Virus record (IMG/VR): IMGVR_UViG_3300032285_004008
DNA: 64,000 bases
DNA from: a virus
Direction: 5' to 3' (one strand)
Shown: piece after piece, positions 2,344 through 41,821 of the stretch
Position numbering within the stretch: position 1 is the first letter of the stretch
Layout: each line of letters opens with the position of its first letter
Made by a program: the position numbers and the translations under genes
The notes under the pieces: model-generated
The model's input: the letters and a program-made list of their open reading frames with translations, nothing else
Databases searched by the model: none
Told to the model about the DNA's origin: nothing

Positions 2344-2437
2344 CACACTCGAAAAAAAAAACGCAACGCAACTTTTCATGAGTTCGTTTGAAGTTCACCA
2401 GACTCGGCAACAACTGGTGCGCACTTACACATGGCAA

Positions 2438-2479
2438 AGAAAACCCCCGACAATCCGTTAGGACTATCGGGGGTTCTCT
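2438..2479 (-). terminator. Terminator-like hairpin after the VWA gene
   Basis: AACCCCCGA..TCGGGGGTT stem with a T-rich tail on the minus strand. Confidence 0.6.
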
Positions 2480-2486
2480 GTTATCA

Positions 2487-2527
2487 CTAACGGAGTGATG
2501 AAAGGACGAACAAACGCACTCCGTTAG
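2487..2527 (-). ncRNA. 11-bp hairpin whose loop is antisense to early-gene RBSs (candidate 3'UTR sRNA element)
   Basis: CTAACGGAGTG/CACTCCGTTAG stem; minus-strand loop CGTTTGTTCGTCCTTTCAT. Confidence 0.4.
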
Positions 2528-2542
2528 CAAACTTGCTGGCGA

Positions 2543-4303
2543 CTAAACGCTTGCTTTCAAAAGTGCGTCCGTTGCGCTCTTACCAATCGCAGACGCAATC
2601 TCGCTGGTCGCTAGATTTCCTAGCACCACGCCGTTTCCCTTGACCAGTCTCTCGCCCATTCCTTGACCGCACTCTTTCGGTGTAATCCAAAGCAGAGCCA
2701 CGCCGTTCTCTTTACAGAGGCGAGCCGTCTCAATCGCACGCTCGGTCTCTGTGCCTGTGTAATGTCCGTCCGATACAACAACCAACATACGCACGCCAGT
2801 TCCAGTTAGCAGACCAAGTGCGCCGTCCAATGCTCGGAACGCCTTGCCAAAAACTTCCGTTCCGTCTGGTGCGGAGTAGACCGAAACCTTATCCAACTTC
2901 TGACCAACCTTGAGAGTTGGGAACACATCTTGTCCGTAGTAGACCATAGCGGTCTTGGCTTGAATACGGCGACCTGCCTCTGACAAAACCCAAGCCGTAG
3001 TCGCCATGCTTTTCATGGCAGACGACATAGAACCGCTAATGTCCACCATTACGCCAATGGTCAAAGTCGGGTCGTCTGTGTGCTTGCGTGTCTTGTGTCG
3101 CCACGCAGGGTTCAAGTCTCGCACGCCCTTTGCCTCTAGTGCCTTGTTCTGAACAAGCACTCGTGATTTCAGTCTGCCCTTTGGTTCGACAGACTTCACG
3201 ATAGTTTCCGAACGCTCACGATACTTTGCCTTTTCCAACATCTGCGCAAGTTTGACTGCGCTGGCTCGTTCGTGTCCAGTTGGGTCTCGTTGCTCTTGAA
3301 GTCGTGAGTGAGACGAAGTTCCCTCGCTACCACTTGACTTGCTAAAGACTTCCTGTGCGTCTCGCTTGCTCTCGCTTTGTCGCTTGCTCTCGCTCTGACG
3401 CTTTGAGACTTCCTCTTTCCATTCCTCTTGGGTCTGCTGGTCGCCCAAGTCTTTCGCAACGGAAGTTCCAGTCTCACCTGCGTCCTCGCTCAAAGCGTCA
3501 AGCAAGTCCTGAATGATTTGAGGAACGCCAGAACCACCCTCACCCTGTTCGCCCTCTGGGTCTGCCTCTTTCAAAAGGTCATTCCACTTTTGAGCAAGTT
3601 CGATACCACGAGCAACTTGGCTCGTGTGAAGTTGCTGAAACTCCACCCAAACTTTGCGAAGTTCATTGAACAAGTCTAACCCAATGACCTCAAGAACTTT
3701 GTCGAAAGTTGCTTGAACATCTGCCAACTTCAAAACACCTGCGTCCACTCGTGCGAGTGCCAACGCTGATACATGAGCGCACGCACGAACCTCTGTCAAG
3801 TTGTCAAGTGCCTCGTCTGTCAAGTCCTCTAGTGCCAAGTTCAAAGCAGACGCACGCAAGAACAACTGGTTCTCTGGCATTAGAACAACGCCCTTGCGTT
3901 CGATACGACTTTCGTCTAGCAACTGAAAAGTCCTGAAAGTTTTTTCGTCCATGCTTTCAAGCGCAGACATTTCCCAAACTGAAAAACGAGCGTGAAGTGC
4001 CTCGTGATAAATAACCCCTGTTGCCTCTGCGAAGTCATACTGGACTTCTCGCTCTGAAAAGTCGCCAACCATTTCTGGAGTGGTCGCAAGACCAAACGCC
4101 CCACCAATGTTGATTTCGATTTCAGCAGTCGTGTTGATAAAGCAAGCAATAGCCATGCCCATACCTGCGTCCTCGCCTGCGTAAACTGCCAAGTCATTTC
4201 GACCTGACCAAGTGTTTACAACCTGCCCAATCTGTGCGCAAGTTTTCAGCCACTCGTTAGGCGTGGTGCTGGTGCGTGTTGCTACTCGTGATAAGTGAGA
4301 CAT
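2543..4303 (-). CDS. VWA (MIDAS) domain protein with N-terminal HExxH region, CobT/NorD-like partner of a MoxR ATPase
   Basis: VMVDISGSMS MIDAS, VVSDG, YHEALH. Start MSHL at 4303 has a GAAAGGACGAA RBS. Confidence 0.85.
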   Translation of the reverse strand: MSHLSRVATRTSTTPNEWLKTCAQIGQVVNTWSGRNDLAVYAGEDAGMGMAIACFINTTAEIEINIGGAFGLATTPEMVGDFSEREVQYDFAEATGVIYHEALHARFSVWEMSALESMDEKTFRTFQLLDESRIERKGVVLMPENQLFLRASALNLALEDLTDEALDNLTEVRACAHVSALALARVDAGVLKLADVQATFDKVLEVIGLDLFNELRKVWVEFQQLHTSQVARGIELAQKWNDLLKEADPEGEQGEGGSGVPQIIQDLLDALSEDAGETGTSVAKDLGDQQTQEEWKEEVSKRQSESKRQSESKRDAQEVFSKSSGSEGTSSHSRLQEQRDPTGHERASAVKLAQMLEKAKYRERSETIVKSVEPKGRLKSRVLVQNKALEAKGVRDLNPAWRHKTRKHTDDPTLTIGVMVDISGSMSSAMKSMATTAWVLSEAGRRIQAKTAMVYYGQDVFPTLKVGQKLDKVSVYSAPDGTEVFGKAFRALDGALGLLTGTGVRMLVVVSDGHYTGTETERAIETARLCKENGVALLWITPKECGQGMGERLVKGNGVVLGNLATSEIASAIGKSATDALLKASV

Positions 4304-4340
4304 TTGATTTCGTCCTTTCGTTGTCTCTTGATTTGTTGCT

Positions 4341-4375
4341 AGTTCCAACCTTACCAGATTTGGCAGGGAACGCAA
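4341..4375 (-). promoter_or_regulatory. Promoter TTGCGT-N16-TAAGGT-TGGAACT
   Basis: Matches the early promoter pattern. Confidence 0.6.
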
Positions 4376-4424
4376 GTTCATTTACAAACTGCGTTCCCCA
4401 CCTTTTCTAGTAGGAACGGAACTA

Positions 4425-5453
4425 CTAGATTTTGGCTGGCAGAACTGCCTCGCCAAAAACTCGTGTGAACACATCTGCGACAACAGACCTGTCAATCTCT
4501 GGTGCGCTGGCAAGCAAGTTGGCAACTGCCCACTTAGAACCAAACAACTCGCTTAGGTCTCGGAACGCAAGCAACTCTCGCATTTGAGGCGACCATGAAG
4601 TTTCGCCATTCGCCTGTTTCTTTGCCAAGTTCTGTGAGGCTGAAACTGCTGTCGCAGGAACGCCCAACTTCTTTGCCAATGCCCAGTCAGTAGTCATTTC
4701 GACCTGAACGCTGAAACGAGAGAGCAACGCCTCTGAAAGTCGAACTCCGGGTGCGTTAGGGTTGGTCGCACCAATCACGAAAAATCCCTCTTGAGCCTTG
4801 ATAGTTCCTCGCTCTGGGTTCTGGGTAATCGTGATTTCCTTGCGTCCGTCCATAAGACCATAGACCGCAGACAAGACCTTTGGGTCAATCAGACCAATCT
4901 CGTCAATGAGCAAAACTTTTCCTTGCTCGGCAGACTTGACCAATGCGCCGTCCACCCATTCAAAACCGCCACTTGGAGTTTGAACATAGCCACCAATGAA
5001 GTCAGCAAGTTCGGTGTCGCCAGAACCAAGAATGGTGTAAAGTTCGTCAGGGAACGCACCCTCAACGAGTGCTGTCTTTCCAGTTCCAGGTGCGCCATAG
5101 AGCAAGACATACTGACCTGCGCCTCGTGCTTTGCGCAAGACTTCAATGTCTGTGTGTTCTCCCCATGAGCGAGAGTAGTAATCCTGACCATTAGGTCGTG
5201 CGTATTTCTCAACGCCCTCTAATGCCTCAACATTTACCACTTTGTTCGCCTTTACTTTTGGAGTGCCAGTTCCAACTTTAGCACGCACATTCGCACGAGC
5301 AGTCGTTGGCATTAGCGCACTTAGTTCTGCTGGAACTTTGGTTGCGTCCATGTCTTGAATGGCAACACCATAGACAAGTTTCGATAGGTCTTGGTAAAGG
5401 TCGTCCACATTTAGTTCGACCTCTGGAACTGCTGGAGTAATGAGAGTAGTCAT
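4425..5453 (-). CDS. MoxR/CbbQ/CobS-like AAA+ ATPase
   Basis: Walker A GAPGTGKT, Walker B LLIDE, GATNP sensor, ALLSRF arginine finger. Confidence 0.9.
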   Translation of the reverse strand: MTTLITPAVPEVELNVDDLYQDLSKLVYGVAIQDMDATKVPAELSALMPTTARANVRAKVGTGTPKVKANKVVNVEALEGVEKYARPNGQDYYSRSWGEHTDIEVLRKARGAGQYVLLYGAPGTGKTALVEGAFPDELYTILGSGDTELADFIGGYVQTPSGGFEWVDGALVKSAEQGKVLLIDEIGLIDPKVLSAVYGLMDGRKEITITQNPERGTIKAQEGFFVIGATNPNAPGVRLSEALLSRFSVQVEMTTDWALAKKLGVPATAVSASQNLAKKQANGETSWSPQMRELLAFRDLSELFGSKWAVANLLASAPEIDRSVVADVFTRVFGEAVLPAKI

Positions 5454-5477
5454 TTTATTTTCCGTCCTTTTCTATGA

Positions 5478-5996
5478 CTATGCTTTTGAGTTGTATGGCT
5501 TTTCAGGAAAGCCAAGTGCTAGGCGAGTTTTCTGAATACGGCGAAGTGCTGACGCTGGTGCTTTCCAATCGCCGATTTCGGTGAAGTCCATGTCTGTAAG
5601 TTCAAACACGATAGGCTTTGCGCCACGCAAGTTAGTCAGACCATACTTCATCTGACGCTTGAGAACACGCTCTACCTGCTCTGACATAGCAGACGCTTTT
5701 GCCTCTGCTGTGGTCAGTTCCTTATCAGGTCGAATGAAACTGATACGCCATTGCTTGCGTGGAGACCAATCGCTAATAGTGCGAGTGCTAATAGCCATTG
5801 CGACATCTTGACCCTTTTCGTTCTTTCCCTCTGGGGTAATCAAGATTTGAGTTGCTTGGTCGCCATTGGCATTTGGGAGTTCAAGGTAGATACCCATTCC
5901 CATTACCTTTGGCTTGTTGCTAACTTCACCAAGCGCAACTGCGCTGGCTAGTTCTGGGGTTAGTTCCCCGAATGTTCCCATTAGGTCTGGGTTCAT
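5478..5996 (-). CDS. Hypothetical early protein
   Basis: 172-aa ORF, AAAGGACGG RBS. Confidence 0.75.
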   Translation of the reverse strand: MNPDLMGTFGELTPELASAVALGEVSNKPKVMGMGIYLELPNANGDQATQILITPEGKNEKGQDVAMAISTRTISDWSPRKQWRISFIRPDKELTTAEAKASAMSEQVERVLKRQMKYGLTNLRGAKPIVFELTDMDFTEIGDWKAPASALRRIQKTRLALGFPEKPYNSKA

Positions 5997-6044
5997 TTTT
6001 TTCCGTCCTTTACTTTAGGTTTGTTGGATTTTTCCAACAAGTCA

Positions 6045-6103: not shown

Positions 6104-6640
6104 CTAGAAGTGAAAATCAACTGGGATTAGGAACTGCTTTTCAGGACTAGAGGCAACTCGCTTTGTGAAGTTGTCTAGTGAACCTGTCCAATAGTCCAAG
6201 TCGTAGATACCACTATCAGGTGTCCAGTCGTCATTCAGAAGTTGTGCCAACTTCTTAGTTCCCCACAACTCCATGTCTAGTTTGTTGTTGTATGGGTCGT
6301 AAGAATAACTAGATAGGTCTAGTGCCTGTGGCTGGAGAAGTCTGATTTCCTCGTAGCGATACTCCAGAAAACGAGTAATCACTTGTTCCGCGAGCGCGGG
6401 GTCGTCTGAATAGCGCAGATAGTTTGGGTTGGTATCTGTGTTGGTCATTACACCCTCCTCGTTGTATGACCCAAAGACTTCACCAGACCAGCGACCAGCA
6501 AAGTTCAAAGTGATAGCCCCTGACTGGTCTGCGTTGTGCCAGTCAGACCATTTTGGCTCGCCCTCTAGTTTGCGTGCTACTTCATCAAAAGCCTGTTCTG
6601 GTGTCTCTGCCTCTACTAGCAGGATTTGGCAAGTGTGCAT
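6104..6640 (-). CDS. Hypothetical phage protein (GRWSG ... VDFH type)
   Basis: 178-aa ORF, GAAAGGACGAA RBS. Confidence 0.75.
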   Translation of the reverse strand: MHTCQILLVEAETPEQAFDEVARKLEGEPKWSDWHNADQSGAITLNFAGRWSGEVFGSYNEEGVMTNTDTNPNYLRYSDDPALAEQVITRFLEYRYEEIRLLQPQALDLSSYSYDPYNNKLDMELWGTKKLAQLLNDDWTPDSGIYDLDYWTGSLDNFTKRVASSPEKQFLIPVDFHF

Positions 6641-6661
6641 TTTCGTCCTTTCGATTTGCCT

Positions 6662-7303: not shown

Positions 7304-7333
7304 AAATAACTCCTGTTTGTTCGTTTGGAGTCA

Positions 7334-22707: not shown

Positions 22708-22781
22708 CGAACCCAACCGGACTTGAACCGGCGACCTCCGCCGTGACAGGGCGGCGCTCTAACCAACTGAGCTATGAGTCC
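22708..22781 (-). tRNA. tRNA-Asp(GTC)
   Basis: GGACTCATAGCTCAGTTGGTTAGAGC..CTGTCAC..GGTTCAAGTCC cloverleaf; no encoded CCA. Confidence 0.95.
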
Positions 22782-22800
22782 ATCTACTTAAAGTATACAG

Positions 22801-22873
22801 CCCCCTATGAGAGATTCGAACTCCCGGCCTTACGGGTAGAAACCGTCTGCGCTATCCACTGCGCCAATAGGGG
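22801..22873 (-). tRNA. tRNA-Arg(TCT)
   Basis: CCCCTAT acceptor, TTTCTAC anticodon loop, GTTCGAATC T-loop. Confidence 0.9.
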
Positions 22874-39806: not shown

Positions 39807-39880
39807 TCGAGAGTGTGGGACTTGAACCCACGACGACCGAATTATGAGTTCGGGGCTCTAACCAGCTGAGCTAACTCCCG
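39807..39880 (-). tRNA. tRNA with CAT anticodon (elongator Met or Ile2)
   Basis: CGGGAGTTAGCTCAGCTGGTTAGAGC..CTCATAA..GGTTCAAGTCC; 5' end overlaps the dut 3' end. Confidence 0.9.
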
Positions 39881-40304
39881 TTGAGCCAAAGCCACCATCT
39901 CCACGATCTGACTCTGGAAGTTCTTGCACTACTTCAAAATCTGCTCTAATAAATTCTTGAATAACAAGTTGAGCAATTCGATCTCCACGATTTACTACAA
40001 ATACATCATTTCCAGTATTGTACAGAATTACACCAATCTCGCCGCGATACCCAGAATCCACAGTCCCTGGAGTATTCAATACCGTAATGCCATTCTTTAG
40101 TGCGAGTCCACTACGAGGGTGCACGAATGCAACATAGTTGCTAGGTAGTGCAATTCTAACGCCAGTCTTGACTAAAGCCCTTTCTCCAGACTTAATTGCC
40201 AGATTTTCCGCTGAGCGTAGATCAGCTCCCGCATCGCCAAACTTAGCGTAACTTGGCAGTAGATCCGGTGATTCAGCAGTAATTAGCACAGTAGTCATAG
40301 ACAA
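39858..40304 (-). CDS. dut: Trimeric dUTPase
   Basis: AGADL, PRSGLA, GTVDSGYRGE, RIAQL, RGDGGFGSTG. Confidence 0.97.
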   Translation of the reverse strand: MSMTTVLITAESPDLLPSYAKFGDAGADLRSAENLAIKSGERALVKTGVRIALPSNYVAFVHPRSGLALKNGITVLNTPGTVDSGYRGEIGVILYNTGNDVFVVNRGDRIAQLVIQEFIRADFEVVQELPESDRGDGGFGSTGVSSAG

Positions 40305-40329
40305 TACCCTAGCATAGTAAACTAGAAAA

Positions 40330-40920
40330 ATGACTAGTTACTCTAAAGAAGATATCAAAAAAGCTATAGCCGAGGCAAATGCCAAGGAAATTGCTGTATC
40401 TTTTAAGGGAATGGCCCCCATCACGCCCGGCTGGGATAAATTTATCCACTTAATACATTCAGAGATTCACGGGGCACCGAATACCACTATCCCAAATTCT
40501 CCCTTAGAAGAGAGAATGATAAATGGCGTGATAATCAGAAATCTTTTCTATCTAACTGTAAGAATATCTAAATTAGAGATGCTATCTGAATCAAGTGCAC
40601 TTATAGAAGTATTTAGCGATATTTTTAATACAGAAATACTTCCAGTCTCGGCATTTATAAATATTATTGGTGGGGAAAAGCCAGGAGAAGCTCATAAAGA
40701 TAATAGGGAGACTATTTTCTGGCAATGCCATGGCGTGTCAGAATGGACGCTATACGAGACACCAGAATCGCCAAAATATGAGACATCAGAATTAAAAATA
40801 TATAAAAAGATAAGGCTAGATCCGGGGGATGTTTTATATCTAAGAAATCAAGGAATACACTCAGTGCAGAATTTTGGACCAAGAGCATCTATTGCTTTTA
40901 TGCCTGATAATCGTAACTAG
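40330..40920 (+). CDS. JmjC/cupin-like 2OG oxygenase (A)
   Basis: HKD.RETIFWQCHG..W..LDPGDVLY..HSV..PRA. Confidence 0.75.
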   Translation: MTSYSKEDIKKAIAEANAKEIAVSFKGMAPITPGWDKFIHLIHSEIHGAPNTTIPNSPLEERMINGVIIRNLFYLTVRISKLEMLSESSALIEVFSDIFNTEILPVSAFINIIGGEKPGEAHKDNRETIFWQCHGVSEWTLYETPESPKYETSELKIYKKIRLDPGDVLYLRNQGIHSVQNFGPRASIAFMPDNRN

Positions 40921-40993
40921 AGCCTCCAACAGGACTTGAACCCGTCACCTACGCATTACAAGTGCGTCGCTCTACCAGATGAGCTATAGAGGC
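40921..40993 (-). tRNA. tRNA-Thr(TGT)
   Basis: GCCTCTA acceptor, ACGCA-CTTGTAA-TGCGT anticodon arm. Confidence 0.95.
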
Positions 40994-41050
40994 AGTAAAA
41001 GAATTTAGTATCAGGAAACATATTTGTCTGATGATCTTATGATTCTTTTG

Positions 41051-41121
41051 AGCGGATAGCGAGAATCGAACTCGCACCTTCAACTTGGAAGGATGAGGCA
41101 CTACCATTATGCAATATCCGC
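41051..41121 (-). tRNA. tRNA-Gly(TCC)
   Basis: GCGGATA acceptor, CTTCCAA loop, GTTCGATTC. Confidence 0.93.
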
Positions 41122-41297
41122 AGCAGCTGCGTCCAGCTACTTTTATTTTATATCATTCTTATAGTCACCGCTACACCAATTCGCGAAATTGGTCCTCCAA
41201 CGTTAGTTCCTTTTGTGGGACGTGGGATATGCTGACTGCAATACATCATCACGGCAGTAGATTATTTTTATATATAAAAATTTTTTTGTCAATTTTG

Positions 41298-41370
41298 CTG
41301 CCCCACCTGGGATCGAACCAGGGACCTGCCGATTAACAGTCGGACGCTCTGCCAGCTGAGCTATAGGGCA
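41298..41370 (-). tRNA. tRNA-Asn(GTT)
   Basis: TGCCCTA acceptor, CTGTTAA loop, GGTTCGATCC. Confidence 0.93.
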
Positions 41371-41494: not shown

Positions 41495-41509
41495 TTTGTC
41501 CTTCTTTCG

Positions 41510-41821
41510 TGGAGATGGCGGGAATTGAACCCGCGTCCTAACATATTCTATCTATTCTTCTACAAGCTTAGGCTCTACCAGCCACGGTACTACAAAGGCG
41601 GGATCTTAAGGTCTCCTGCTGCAACCTTTCGGTTGTTCTATTTATTTAAGACCTGACTGCCCAGCTAGAACTACTGCTTTGTCAGGGGCATGAGCTACTA
41701 CTAAGCAGCTAGTGCGAATGTTGAACGTGATTCAGCATTTATTTTTTTGCCCGATCTAAGAGTACGGGCGTCTCTGCTTGCTTCACTAGACGTCAGATGC
41801 CAGTCGAAACCAGTCATCCCC
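41510..41821 (-). ncRNA. ssrA: tmRNA; tag (A)AESRSTFALAA at 41736-41701
   Basis: 5' GGGGATGACTGGTTTCGAC; 3' GACGCGGGTTCAATTCCCGCCATCTCCA; tag ORF ends ALAA-TAG. Confidence 0.95.

Follow-up and report, generated by a model that had tools for sequence, protein, structure and literature searches.

Which start site, if any, is addressed by a hairpin that displays an anti-RBS loop at the 3' end of a phage gene? The question is raised by the region behind a CobT-like VWA gene in the 64-kb stretch of viral DNA analysed here (IMG/VR record IMGVR_UViG_3300032285_004008, hereafter the window), in whose first 15 kb the genes lie on the minus strand. A preliminary description had interpreted this hairpin as part of a 3'UTR-derived small RNA (sRNA) that shuts off translation of the early genes and thus acts as a timer. 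Of this interpretation, a 3'UTR hairpin ahead of a terminator with a loop selected for complementarity to a ribosome-binding site (RBS) stands, whereas the RBS to which complementarity is conserved belongs to the VWA gene itself. All coordinates are given on the plus strand, and the RNA is read on the minus strand.

The VWA gene and the hairpin at its 3' end

The VWA gene (2543-4303, minus strand; 586 aa) runs from ATG 4303-4301 to the stop codon TAG 2545-2543. Its longest open reading frame begins at 4381, but relatives instead align from the methionine at 4303, and the start was set there because of this alignment and of a Shine-Dalgarno (SD) sequence 5 nt upstream. The resulting translation initiation region GAAAGGACGAAAUCAAAUG (4301-4319, minus strand) comprises the SD (4309-4319) and the AUG (4303-4301), and local folding predicts a weak hairpin (GAGACA 4327-4322 / UGUCUC 4302-4297) whose 19-nt loop contains the SD. 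Further upstream lies a putative promoter (4348-4375, minus strand) with the boxes TTGCGT (4375-4370) and TAAGGT (4353-4348) separated by a 16-nt spacer. A long inverted repeat holds the -35 box in its 3' arm, which is also the case in most relatives (TTGACA or TTGCGT), and this repeat in turn lies behind a hairpin at the stop codon of the preceding gene, which encodes an AAA_5 (CobS/MoxR-like) ATPase, the partner of the VWA protein (4425-5453, minus strand; 342 aa). Given a -35-like box behind the AAA stop, the VWA gene is probably a separate transcription unit with its own promoter. Phage records with a VWA homologue all belong to actinophages (Actinomycetia phage DSL-LC01 as well as Microbacterium and Gordonia phages), and the DSL-LC01 homologue is annotated 'cobalamin biosynthesis protein'. 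Also encoded in the window are six tRNA genes, together with a full-length tmRNA gene (128.6 bits; 22708-22873, 39807-41370, and 41507-41821, minus strand), a set that resembles those of other large actinophage-like genomes.

The hairpin, H1 (2484-2530, minus strand), starts 12 nt past the VWA stop codon. Its arms 2487-2497 and 2517-2527 are 100% complementary and form the perfect 11-bp core previously described, which grows to 14 bp by U-A, U-G, and G-U pairs and encloses 19 nt. This loop (2498-2516; RNA 2516-2498) reads CGUUUGUUCGUCCUUUCAU and contains the anti-RBS sequence, while the 5' arm holds the box CUAACGGAGUGC that is conserved in the family of related elements (see below). The 181-nt region around H1 folds with z = -5.6 against shuffles, and H1 is the sole sense-strand hairpin of the window (stem of at least 8 bp) with a CU-rich anti-SD loop. 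Since it is followed by UGAUAACAGAG and no U tract, H1 itself does not qualify as an intrinsic terminator. The terminator-like second hairpin noted earlier is nonetheless real: 13 bases beyond H1 begins an intrinsic terminator for the VWA transcript (2436-2473, minus strand) with a GC-rich 13-bp stem (CCCCCGAUAGUCC / GGAUUGUCGGGGG, 2473-2461 / 2456-2444) that includes two G-U pairs, the loop UAAC, and the tail UUUUCUUU with its U tract at 2443-2436. The 2444-2473 hairpin was judged by eye to be a good terminator; a simple terminator scanner did not call it, possibly owing to an extension of the stem into the A and U tracts. Its homologue in the family motif is the second hairpin (AGAACCCC...GGGGUUUC). 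Judging from this anatomy, H1 and the VWA RBS would lie on one transcript. The next gene starts about 200 nt beyond (ATG 2238), behind a repeated promoter box of the region.

Two side observations concern these surroundings. The element CUAACGGAUUG in the terminator loop and 3' arm (2451-2461, minus strand) is a near copy of the H1 5' arm CUAACGGAGUG (2517-2527, minus strand), so that the H1 3' arm could pair with the terminator instead; a loop-dependent antiterminator built on this alternative helix was considered and rejected, as by eye the helix is poorly kept in L019, the closest relative. A repeated box TTGTATTTATTTTTTCTA(C/G), moreover, precedes promoter-like sequences at about 2325, 6735, and 7405 (minus strand), and the leaders behind it end in GGAACUAG before several early genes.

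The loop part UUCGUCCUUUC is complementary to the VWA RBS GAAAGGACGAA. This word occurs exactly at 4309-4319 and 6642-6652 on the minus strand and, on the plus strand, within the H1 loop; with at most one mismatch, four sites compare with 0.94 expected, and 2 of 100 shuffles yield as many as four. Both 11-nt complements of the preliminary description are therefore exact, but the one at 4309-4319 is the VWA gene's own RBS and not that of another early gene, while the one at 6642-6652 is the RBS of gene 6104-6640 (minus strand) and identical over 11 nt to the VWA RBS. The shorter matches listed there were recovered as well, namely 10 nt at 7324-7315 (ACGAACAAAC), 8 nt (AUGAAAGG) whose true position is 2254-2247, one base shifted from that given, and 8 nt (AAAGGACG) near 5461 and 6001, before the genes starting at 5453 and 5996. 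The word AAAGGACGRAA is common to four consecutive genes (starts 6640, 5996, 5453, and 4303). When every 38-nt window of the 64-kb minus strand was scanned for duplexes with the loop, the best predicted partner was the VWA initiation region (-21.3 kcal/mol, 17 bp from the SD through the AUG). This duplex consists of 11 bp on the SD, a 2-nt bulge, and the pairing of loop CGUUUG with CAAAUG, start codon included. The second-best predicted duplex, with 6642-6652 (-19.3 kcal/mol), marks this site as a possible secondary trans target of the loop. As the VWA SD itself lies in a hairpin loop, a loop-loop (kissing) contact between the two is structurally plausible. A role of the H1 loop as RBS of a plus-strand reading frame, by contrast, finds no support, since the distance between the GGA and the nearest plus-strand start (TTG 2533) is about 27 nt and G-U pairs conserved in the family (see below) place the structure on the VWA-sense strand.

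Displayed SDs are found at the neighbouring genes, too. The AAA RBS and start (5446-5481, minus strand) lie in a 20-22-nt loop of an 8-10-bp hairpin (AAAGGACGGAAAA...AUG), and so do those of gene 5478-5996 (5982-6023, minus strand); loop-displayed SDs thus appear to be a feature of the AAA-VWA module.

Loop and own RBS change together in relatives

Relatives were found via the VWA protein and comprise 18 IMG/VR and 80 metagenome loci (98 in all, 73 of them distinct) with 40-72% identity. These loci are mostly of freshwater and partly of marine origin and actinophage-like, and their hosts are probably Actinobacteria, which are not known to encode Hfq. For each locus, the VWA start was taken from the protein alignment, the 3'UTR not being consulted, and 31 nt around this start were compared with 170 nt after the stop. 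Despite many sequence changes, loop and RBS have remained matched: the mean length of the longest exact complement is 8.9 nt with the own RBS as compared to 6.4 nt with the RBSs of other loci. With 39 cluster representatives, which are still phylogenetically related, the values are 8.9 versus 6.5 +/- 0.2 nt (100,000 permutations, p<=1e-5). The matches involve at least 16 distinct words with lengths of 9-15 nt, and compensatory indels occur among them. They are lineage-specific and reach into different flanks of the SD, as exemplified by UGACGGAAGGAY (12 nt), AAAGGACAAG (10 nt), GAAAGGACAA, CUUUUAGAAAGGG (13 nt), UUUUGGAAAGG (11 nt), AAACAGAAAGGU (12 nt), AAAGGAUAAGAAA (13 nt), UAAACAGAAAGGAUU (15 nt), and GGGAAAGCAA (10 nt). 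The window and L019 have the word CGAAAGGACGAA (12 nt) in common, which carries little weight alone because the two are about 80% identical over the whole 3'UTR. Fine compensation is visible in pairs such as GGGAAGCA/UGCUUCCC versus GGGAAAGCA/UGCUUUCCC versus GGGAAAAAC/GUUUUUCCC, or GGUAAGGG/CCCUUACC versus GGUAUGGG/CCCAUACC. The matching stretch is also accessible, being 84% unpaired in minimum free energy (MFE) folds as compared to 43% for the 3'UTR overall.

Not every feature of the loops follows this rule. Many relatives have an exact match of only 7-8 nt that is flanked by C opposite A, with 42 A-C versus 8 G-U combinations at the positions beside the seeds. As the C runs oppose A, the loops are not optimised purely for RBS pairing, and the C runs of many loops are not explained by it. 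In four loci (L002, L010, L013, and L022), many genes of the same phage carry a lineage-specific extended RBS word (e.g., AACGACGGAAGGA or ACGAAAGGACAA), so that a match to the own RBS cannot be told apart completely from one to the RBS consensus of the lineage; pairing with the 16S tail would not account for the length of these words.

How specific is the match for the VWA gene? With about nine sense-strand gene starts compared per locus, the VWA RBS ranks first, alone or tied, in 52 of 73 loci, and in 32 no other start equals it. The excess of own over cross matches amounts to +2.57 nt for the VWA RBS and only to +0.3 to +0.8 nt for the RBSs of the AAA gene, of the homologues of the 6640, 5996, and 2238 genes, and of the 1079-1939 gene. 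These values speak against a loop that targets early genes in general, as had been proposed, and leave a wider early-gene shut-off weakly supported. The site at 6642-6652 is partly kept, in that the homologue of the 6640 gene retains 7-10 nt in L019, L024, and L032 (10 nt in L019 and L024); its match to the VWA 3'UTR never exceeds that of the VWA site. For the gene behind the 7315-7324 match (start 7303), a homologue occurs in a single relative, L020. Three loci, L087, L089, and L091, have a VWA gene that lacks its own SD and immediately follows the AAA gene. The AAA gene is then the first cistron, and its RBS is the best match of the loop in L087 (14 nt) and L089 (11 nt); in L091, the loop matches the AAA RBS over 11 nt and the RBS of a downstream gene over 13 nt. 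A general rule by which the 3' region of each gene matches its own RBS was also considered and fails within the window (5.52 versus 5.55 for 79 genes, the VWA gene being the sole outlier).

At a distance of 1.5-3 kb downstream of the VWA gene, some relatives have additional strong hairpins whose loops are of the CCCCCUU type (L054 7571-7645, L081 6209-6309, L053 7005-7039, L056 5159-5248, and L097 4373-4520). Several of them give weak hits with the covariance model described below, and no extended match of such hairpins (e.g., in L054, L081, and L053) to the RBS of the upstream gene was detected.

The AAA gene offers an independent second case that, judged by its sequence, obeys the same rule. 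In the window, a small hairpin spans its stop codon (4407-4428, minus strand; CUAGUAG - UUCCGUUC - CUACUAG), and its loop can form six consecutive Watson-Crick pairs, or 8 bp with one G-U, with the gene's own RBS GGACGGAA (5460-5467). Most relatives have a hairpin straddling the AAA stop, with the stop codon within the stem (e.g., AGAUUUAGUGG-UUCGUGUCC-CACUAAA), and the loop covaries with the RBS, as in the pairs UUCGUGUCC/GGACACGAA, GUUUCCGUCCU/AGGACGGAAAC, CUAGUGUCCUU/AAGGACACUAG, UUGUCGUAUC/GAUACGACAA, and CAUUGGGUG/CACCCAAUG. For 32 representative loci, the match to the own RBS is 7.6 nt as compared to 5.65 +/- 0.22 nt in permutations (p<=1e-5).

A structured RNA motif behind the VWA stop codon

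Nearly all relatives carry a structured element right after the VWA stop, and a hairpin with a CU-rich loop is found within 200 nt of it in 64 of 74 distinct loci. The VWA hairpins begin 4-12 nt after the stop, and the elements come in several forms. A single long hairpin with the loop UCCUUCCGUCAGAU characterises L001-L009 and L096, a single hairpin with the loop UUACUUGUCCUUU is present in L010, L013, and DSL-LC01, and L021-L032 have a two-hairpin form. The commonest form is a three-helix domain, AACGGAKUGCCUA...GGUUGAGCGAAAG - hairpin with the loop YCCCCCCUUUC - ACUAGUUCCC..., after which a terminator-like hairpin follows whose large loop reads UGCUUUCCCCC. Among the many relatives in which the next gene begins directly after the hairpin and no terminator is present are L001-L009.

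Covariation was assessed with 21 aligned sequences of the largest subgroup, which has the three-helix form. Their consensus structure is paired in 97.4% of the cells, and 65 cells have changed on both sides as compared to 17 in shuffles, none of 500 shuffles reaching 65; the pairing scores collapse once the partners are slid. About 46 cells are G-U and about 14 unpaired, and one G-U pair is kept in 20 of 21 sequences. These conserved G-U pairs indicate that the structure belongs to the VWA-sense RNA. At the level of sequence comparison, the family structure is real and its stems covary. The strand was assigned by such alignment-based pair counts, as two energy-based approaches had proven unsuitable: the antisense loop-RBS duplex is the more stable one on average (55 versus 18 loci), and the MFE of the UTR does not differ between strands. 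Both outcomes stem from the C-rich loops, whose A-C mismatches turn into G-U on the other strand.

A covariance model trained on the same 21 sequences (R1, alignment A2) matches about 58 loci (E<1e-5), including untrained subgroups, and every such match lies on the sense strand immediately behind the VWA stop. The window element yields no match at E<=1 in a 748-kb search. With filters off and a 401-nt target, a weak match of 26.5 bits is obtained that covers the 5' box CUAACGGAGUGC and the terminator (AGAACCCCC...GGGGGUUUUC), with the simple H1 replacing the central domain; L019, the window's closest relative, likewise scores only 6.6 bits. The window element appears to be a reduced, divergent version of the family motif. 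It follows the VWA stop immediately, lies on the sense strand, and has a loop complementary to the VWA RBS, and its membership in the family is suggested by synteny, the shared box and terminator, and the shared logic rather than by a strong model score. The most conserved sequence of the motif, AACGG, which belongs to the almost unvarying box AACGGAKUGC, is present in 44 of 73 3'UTRs, often twice. A CCGUU partner in the VWA leader was found in only two of 73 loci, and the box could serve antiterminator-like pairing or as a protein or processing site.

Searches against Rfam returned no hit at the gathering score in the window, the actinobacterial 6C RNA (RF01066) included, and none at E<=1 in eight relatives; between 2200 and 2700, only sub-threshold, terminator-type noise appeared at E<=10. 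In Microbacterium phage Pumpernickel, a distant cultured relative (31% identity), a hairpin follows the gene and no RBS match was seen.

Proposed autoregulation, its alternatives, and its relevance

Taken together, we consider it fairly probable (roughly two in three) that H1 is a 3'UTR element that pairs with the start region of its own gene and mediates delayed negative autoregulation of VWA. According to this model, the 14-bp stem would hold the 19-nt loop open for base pairing with the VWA initiation region from the SD through the AUG (4319-4301). This might occur in cis, the tail of the finished mRNA folding back onto its start, or in trans, a nuclease-resistant 3' fragment consisting of H1 and the terminator acting on newly made VWA mRNA. 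In either case, the pairing would cover the SD and should block binding of the 30S subunit, thereby limiting the amount of VWA protein per message or infection. The feedback would be delayed, since transcription has to traverse the entire 1.76-kb gene before it reaches the loop, and it would retain the flavour of a timer, albeit one acting on the VWA gene itself. Pairing of loop and RBS in the cell would be expected from their co-evolution, and we infer repression only from the SD being covered; the sequences are compatible with action in cis or in trans and with repression as well as with a positive closed loop.

The proposal closest to the preliminary description, a stable trans-acting sRNA (H1 plus terminator) that binds the RBSs of the 6640, 5996, 5453, 7303, and 2238 genes in addition to that of VWA and shuts off the early programme as a timer, appears unlikely to us, although it does not exclude autoregulation at the own start. 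It draws on the second exact 11-nt site and the 10-nt site within the window, on the word AAAGGACGRAA in front of four consecutive genes, on the partial conservation of the 6640 site in three relatives, on the matching word being common to many RBSs in some lineages, and on the succession of hairpin and terminator that is the usual shape of a 3'UTR-derived sRNA. Yet the co-evolution is specific to the VWA RBS, which is the unique best partner in 32 of 73 loci, the 7303 gene has its only homologue in L020, and in L001-L009, where the next gene directly follows the hairpin, no discrete sRNA end is evident. Lower still do we rate a positive role, in which the pairing of tail and start would create a closed loop that guards the message against 5' exonucleases or endonucleases or returns ribosomes to the start; a ribosome at the stop codon would then melt the base of the hairpin 4-15 nt downstream and free the SD. 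The position of the hairpins so near the VWA stop, and of the AAA stop codon within the stem in most relatives, means that every terminating ribosome must disturb them, a coupling that plain repression does not require. However, the pairing covers the SD and often the AUG, which blocks initiation in every characterised bacterial case (PMC3868564, PMC7398697), and nothing in the sequences points directly to activation.

Explanations that dispense with RBS pairing fare worse. It is very improbable that H1 is merely structural and resembles an anti-SD by accident, whether it serves in tandem termination, in blocking exonucleases, or as an RNase III site of the lambda sib kind, or that it mimics the 16S rRNA 3' end or binds a protein, even though long perfect stems are typical RNase III substrates and neither the conserved box CUAACGGAKUGC nor the C runs are explained by RBS pairing. 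The word UCCUUUC, moreover, coincides with a stretch of the 16S rRNA 3' tail, so that SDs would be matched by any loop of this kind. A structural role would predict a constant or a free loop; the loops instead track the flanks of their own RBS in at least 16 words with compensatory indels, and H1 lacks a U tract and is followed by the true terminator. The covariation therefore appears to disfavour this explanation. At the DNA level, RBS word and loop word formally constitute an inverted repeat that brackets the VWA gene, which might be taken for recombination or operator sites, and the energy-based tests did not separate the strands. Nevertheless, the chance of such a role seems vanishingly small, as the two copies invariably coincide with the SD and with the loop of a covarying hairpin, respectively, the repeats measure only 7-15 bp, and the ratio of about 46 G-U to about 14 unpaired cells fits a sense-strand RNA.

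Several known systems resemble the proposed autoregulation in part. In phage lambda, sib mediates retroregulation of int and provides an RNase III entry site. Like sib, H1 would be a phage regulatory hairpin located 3' of the controlled gene, but sib acts through this entry site and not by RBS pairing. The closest counterpart in terms of logic is the icaR mRNA of S. aureus, in which an anti-SD motif in the 3'UTR pairs with the own SD, blocks ribosome binding, and creates an RNase III site (PMC3868564; reviewed in PMC5502269). Here, too, an anti-SD in the 3'UTR is complementary, beyond chance, to the SD of the same mRNA. The phage element, however, has no sequence or structural homology to icaR, presents its motif in the loop of a long covarying hairpin, probably for loop-loop kissing, and is conserved and co-evolving across a large phage family, twice on neighbouring genes. 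OppZ and CarZ of Vibrio cholerae are autoregulatory 3'UTR-derived sRNAs that are released by RNase E, act in trans, and provide delayed negative feedback (Hoyos et al. 2020, PMC7398697; Hfq is among the paper's keywords). They share with H1 the location at the 3' end of a transcription unit before the terminator and the complementarity to an initiation region in the own transcript, but differ in that the phage element could equally well act purely in cis and that its likely hosts are Actinobacteria. Finally, the actinobacterial 6C sRNA (Rfam RF01066) is reported to bind mRNA targets independently of RNA chaperones (Mai et al. 2019, PMC6486639). 6C resembles the phage family in its C-rich loops on hairpins, given that most family members show CCCCCCUUUC-type loops and have probable actinobacterial hosts. 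It is distinguished by the missing Rfam match or homology, by being a free-standing gene rather than an mRNA tail, and by the window loop, which has no C run and is directed at the element's own gene. Literature searches retrieved no published description of such a phage element.

Tested cases in which 3'UTR pairing controls an own RBS are few (icaR and, in trans, OppZ and CarZ), and none has been backed by deep comparative evidence. In the phages considered here, the same logic would be embodied in a conserved structured RNA of a large family of uncultured aquatic phages, with dozens of natural compensatory 'experiments' and a second instance on the neighbouring gene. The element constitutes a new RNA motif family and a candidate for Rfam, and its natural loop/RBS pairs provide a test set for short loop-displayed seeds in hosts without Hfq. 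A more far-reaching view, which we regard as doubtful, is that tail-RBS pairing is a heritable design of the AAA-VWA (CobS/CobT-like) pair in aquatic phages and a new, widespread class of cis-regulatory RNA absent from Rfam that works as a ribosome-coupled counter or closed-loop switch. The 3' hairpin loop of each gene would track its own RBS and terminating ribosomes would melt the hairpins, so that the output would depend on the number of ribosomes that have finished and not on simple repression. With respect to delayed autoregulation, the tail-start pairing would represent a simple and portable design for negative feedback, and it may suggest that these phages have to keep the amount of the enigmatic CobS/CobT-like AAA-VWA pair within tight limits.
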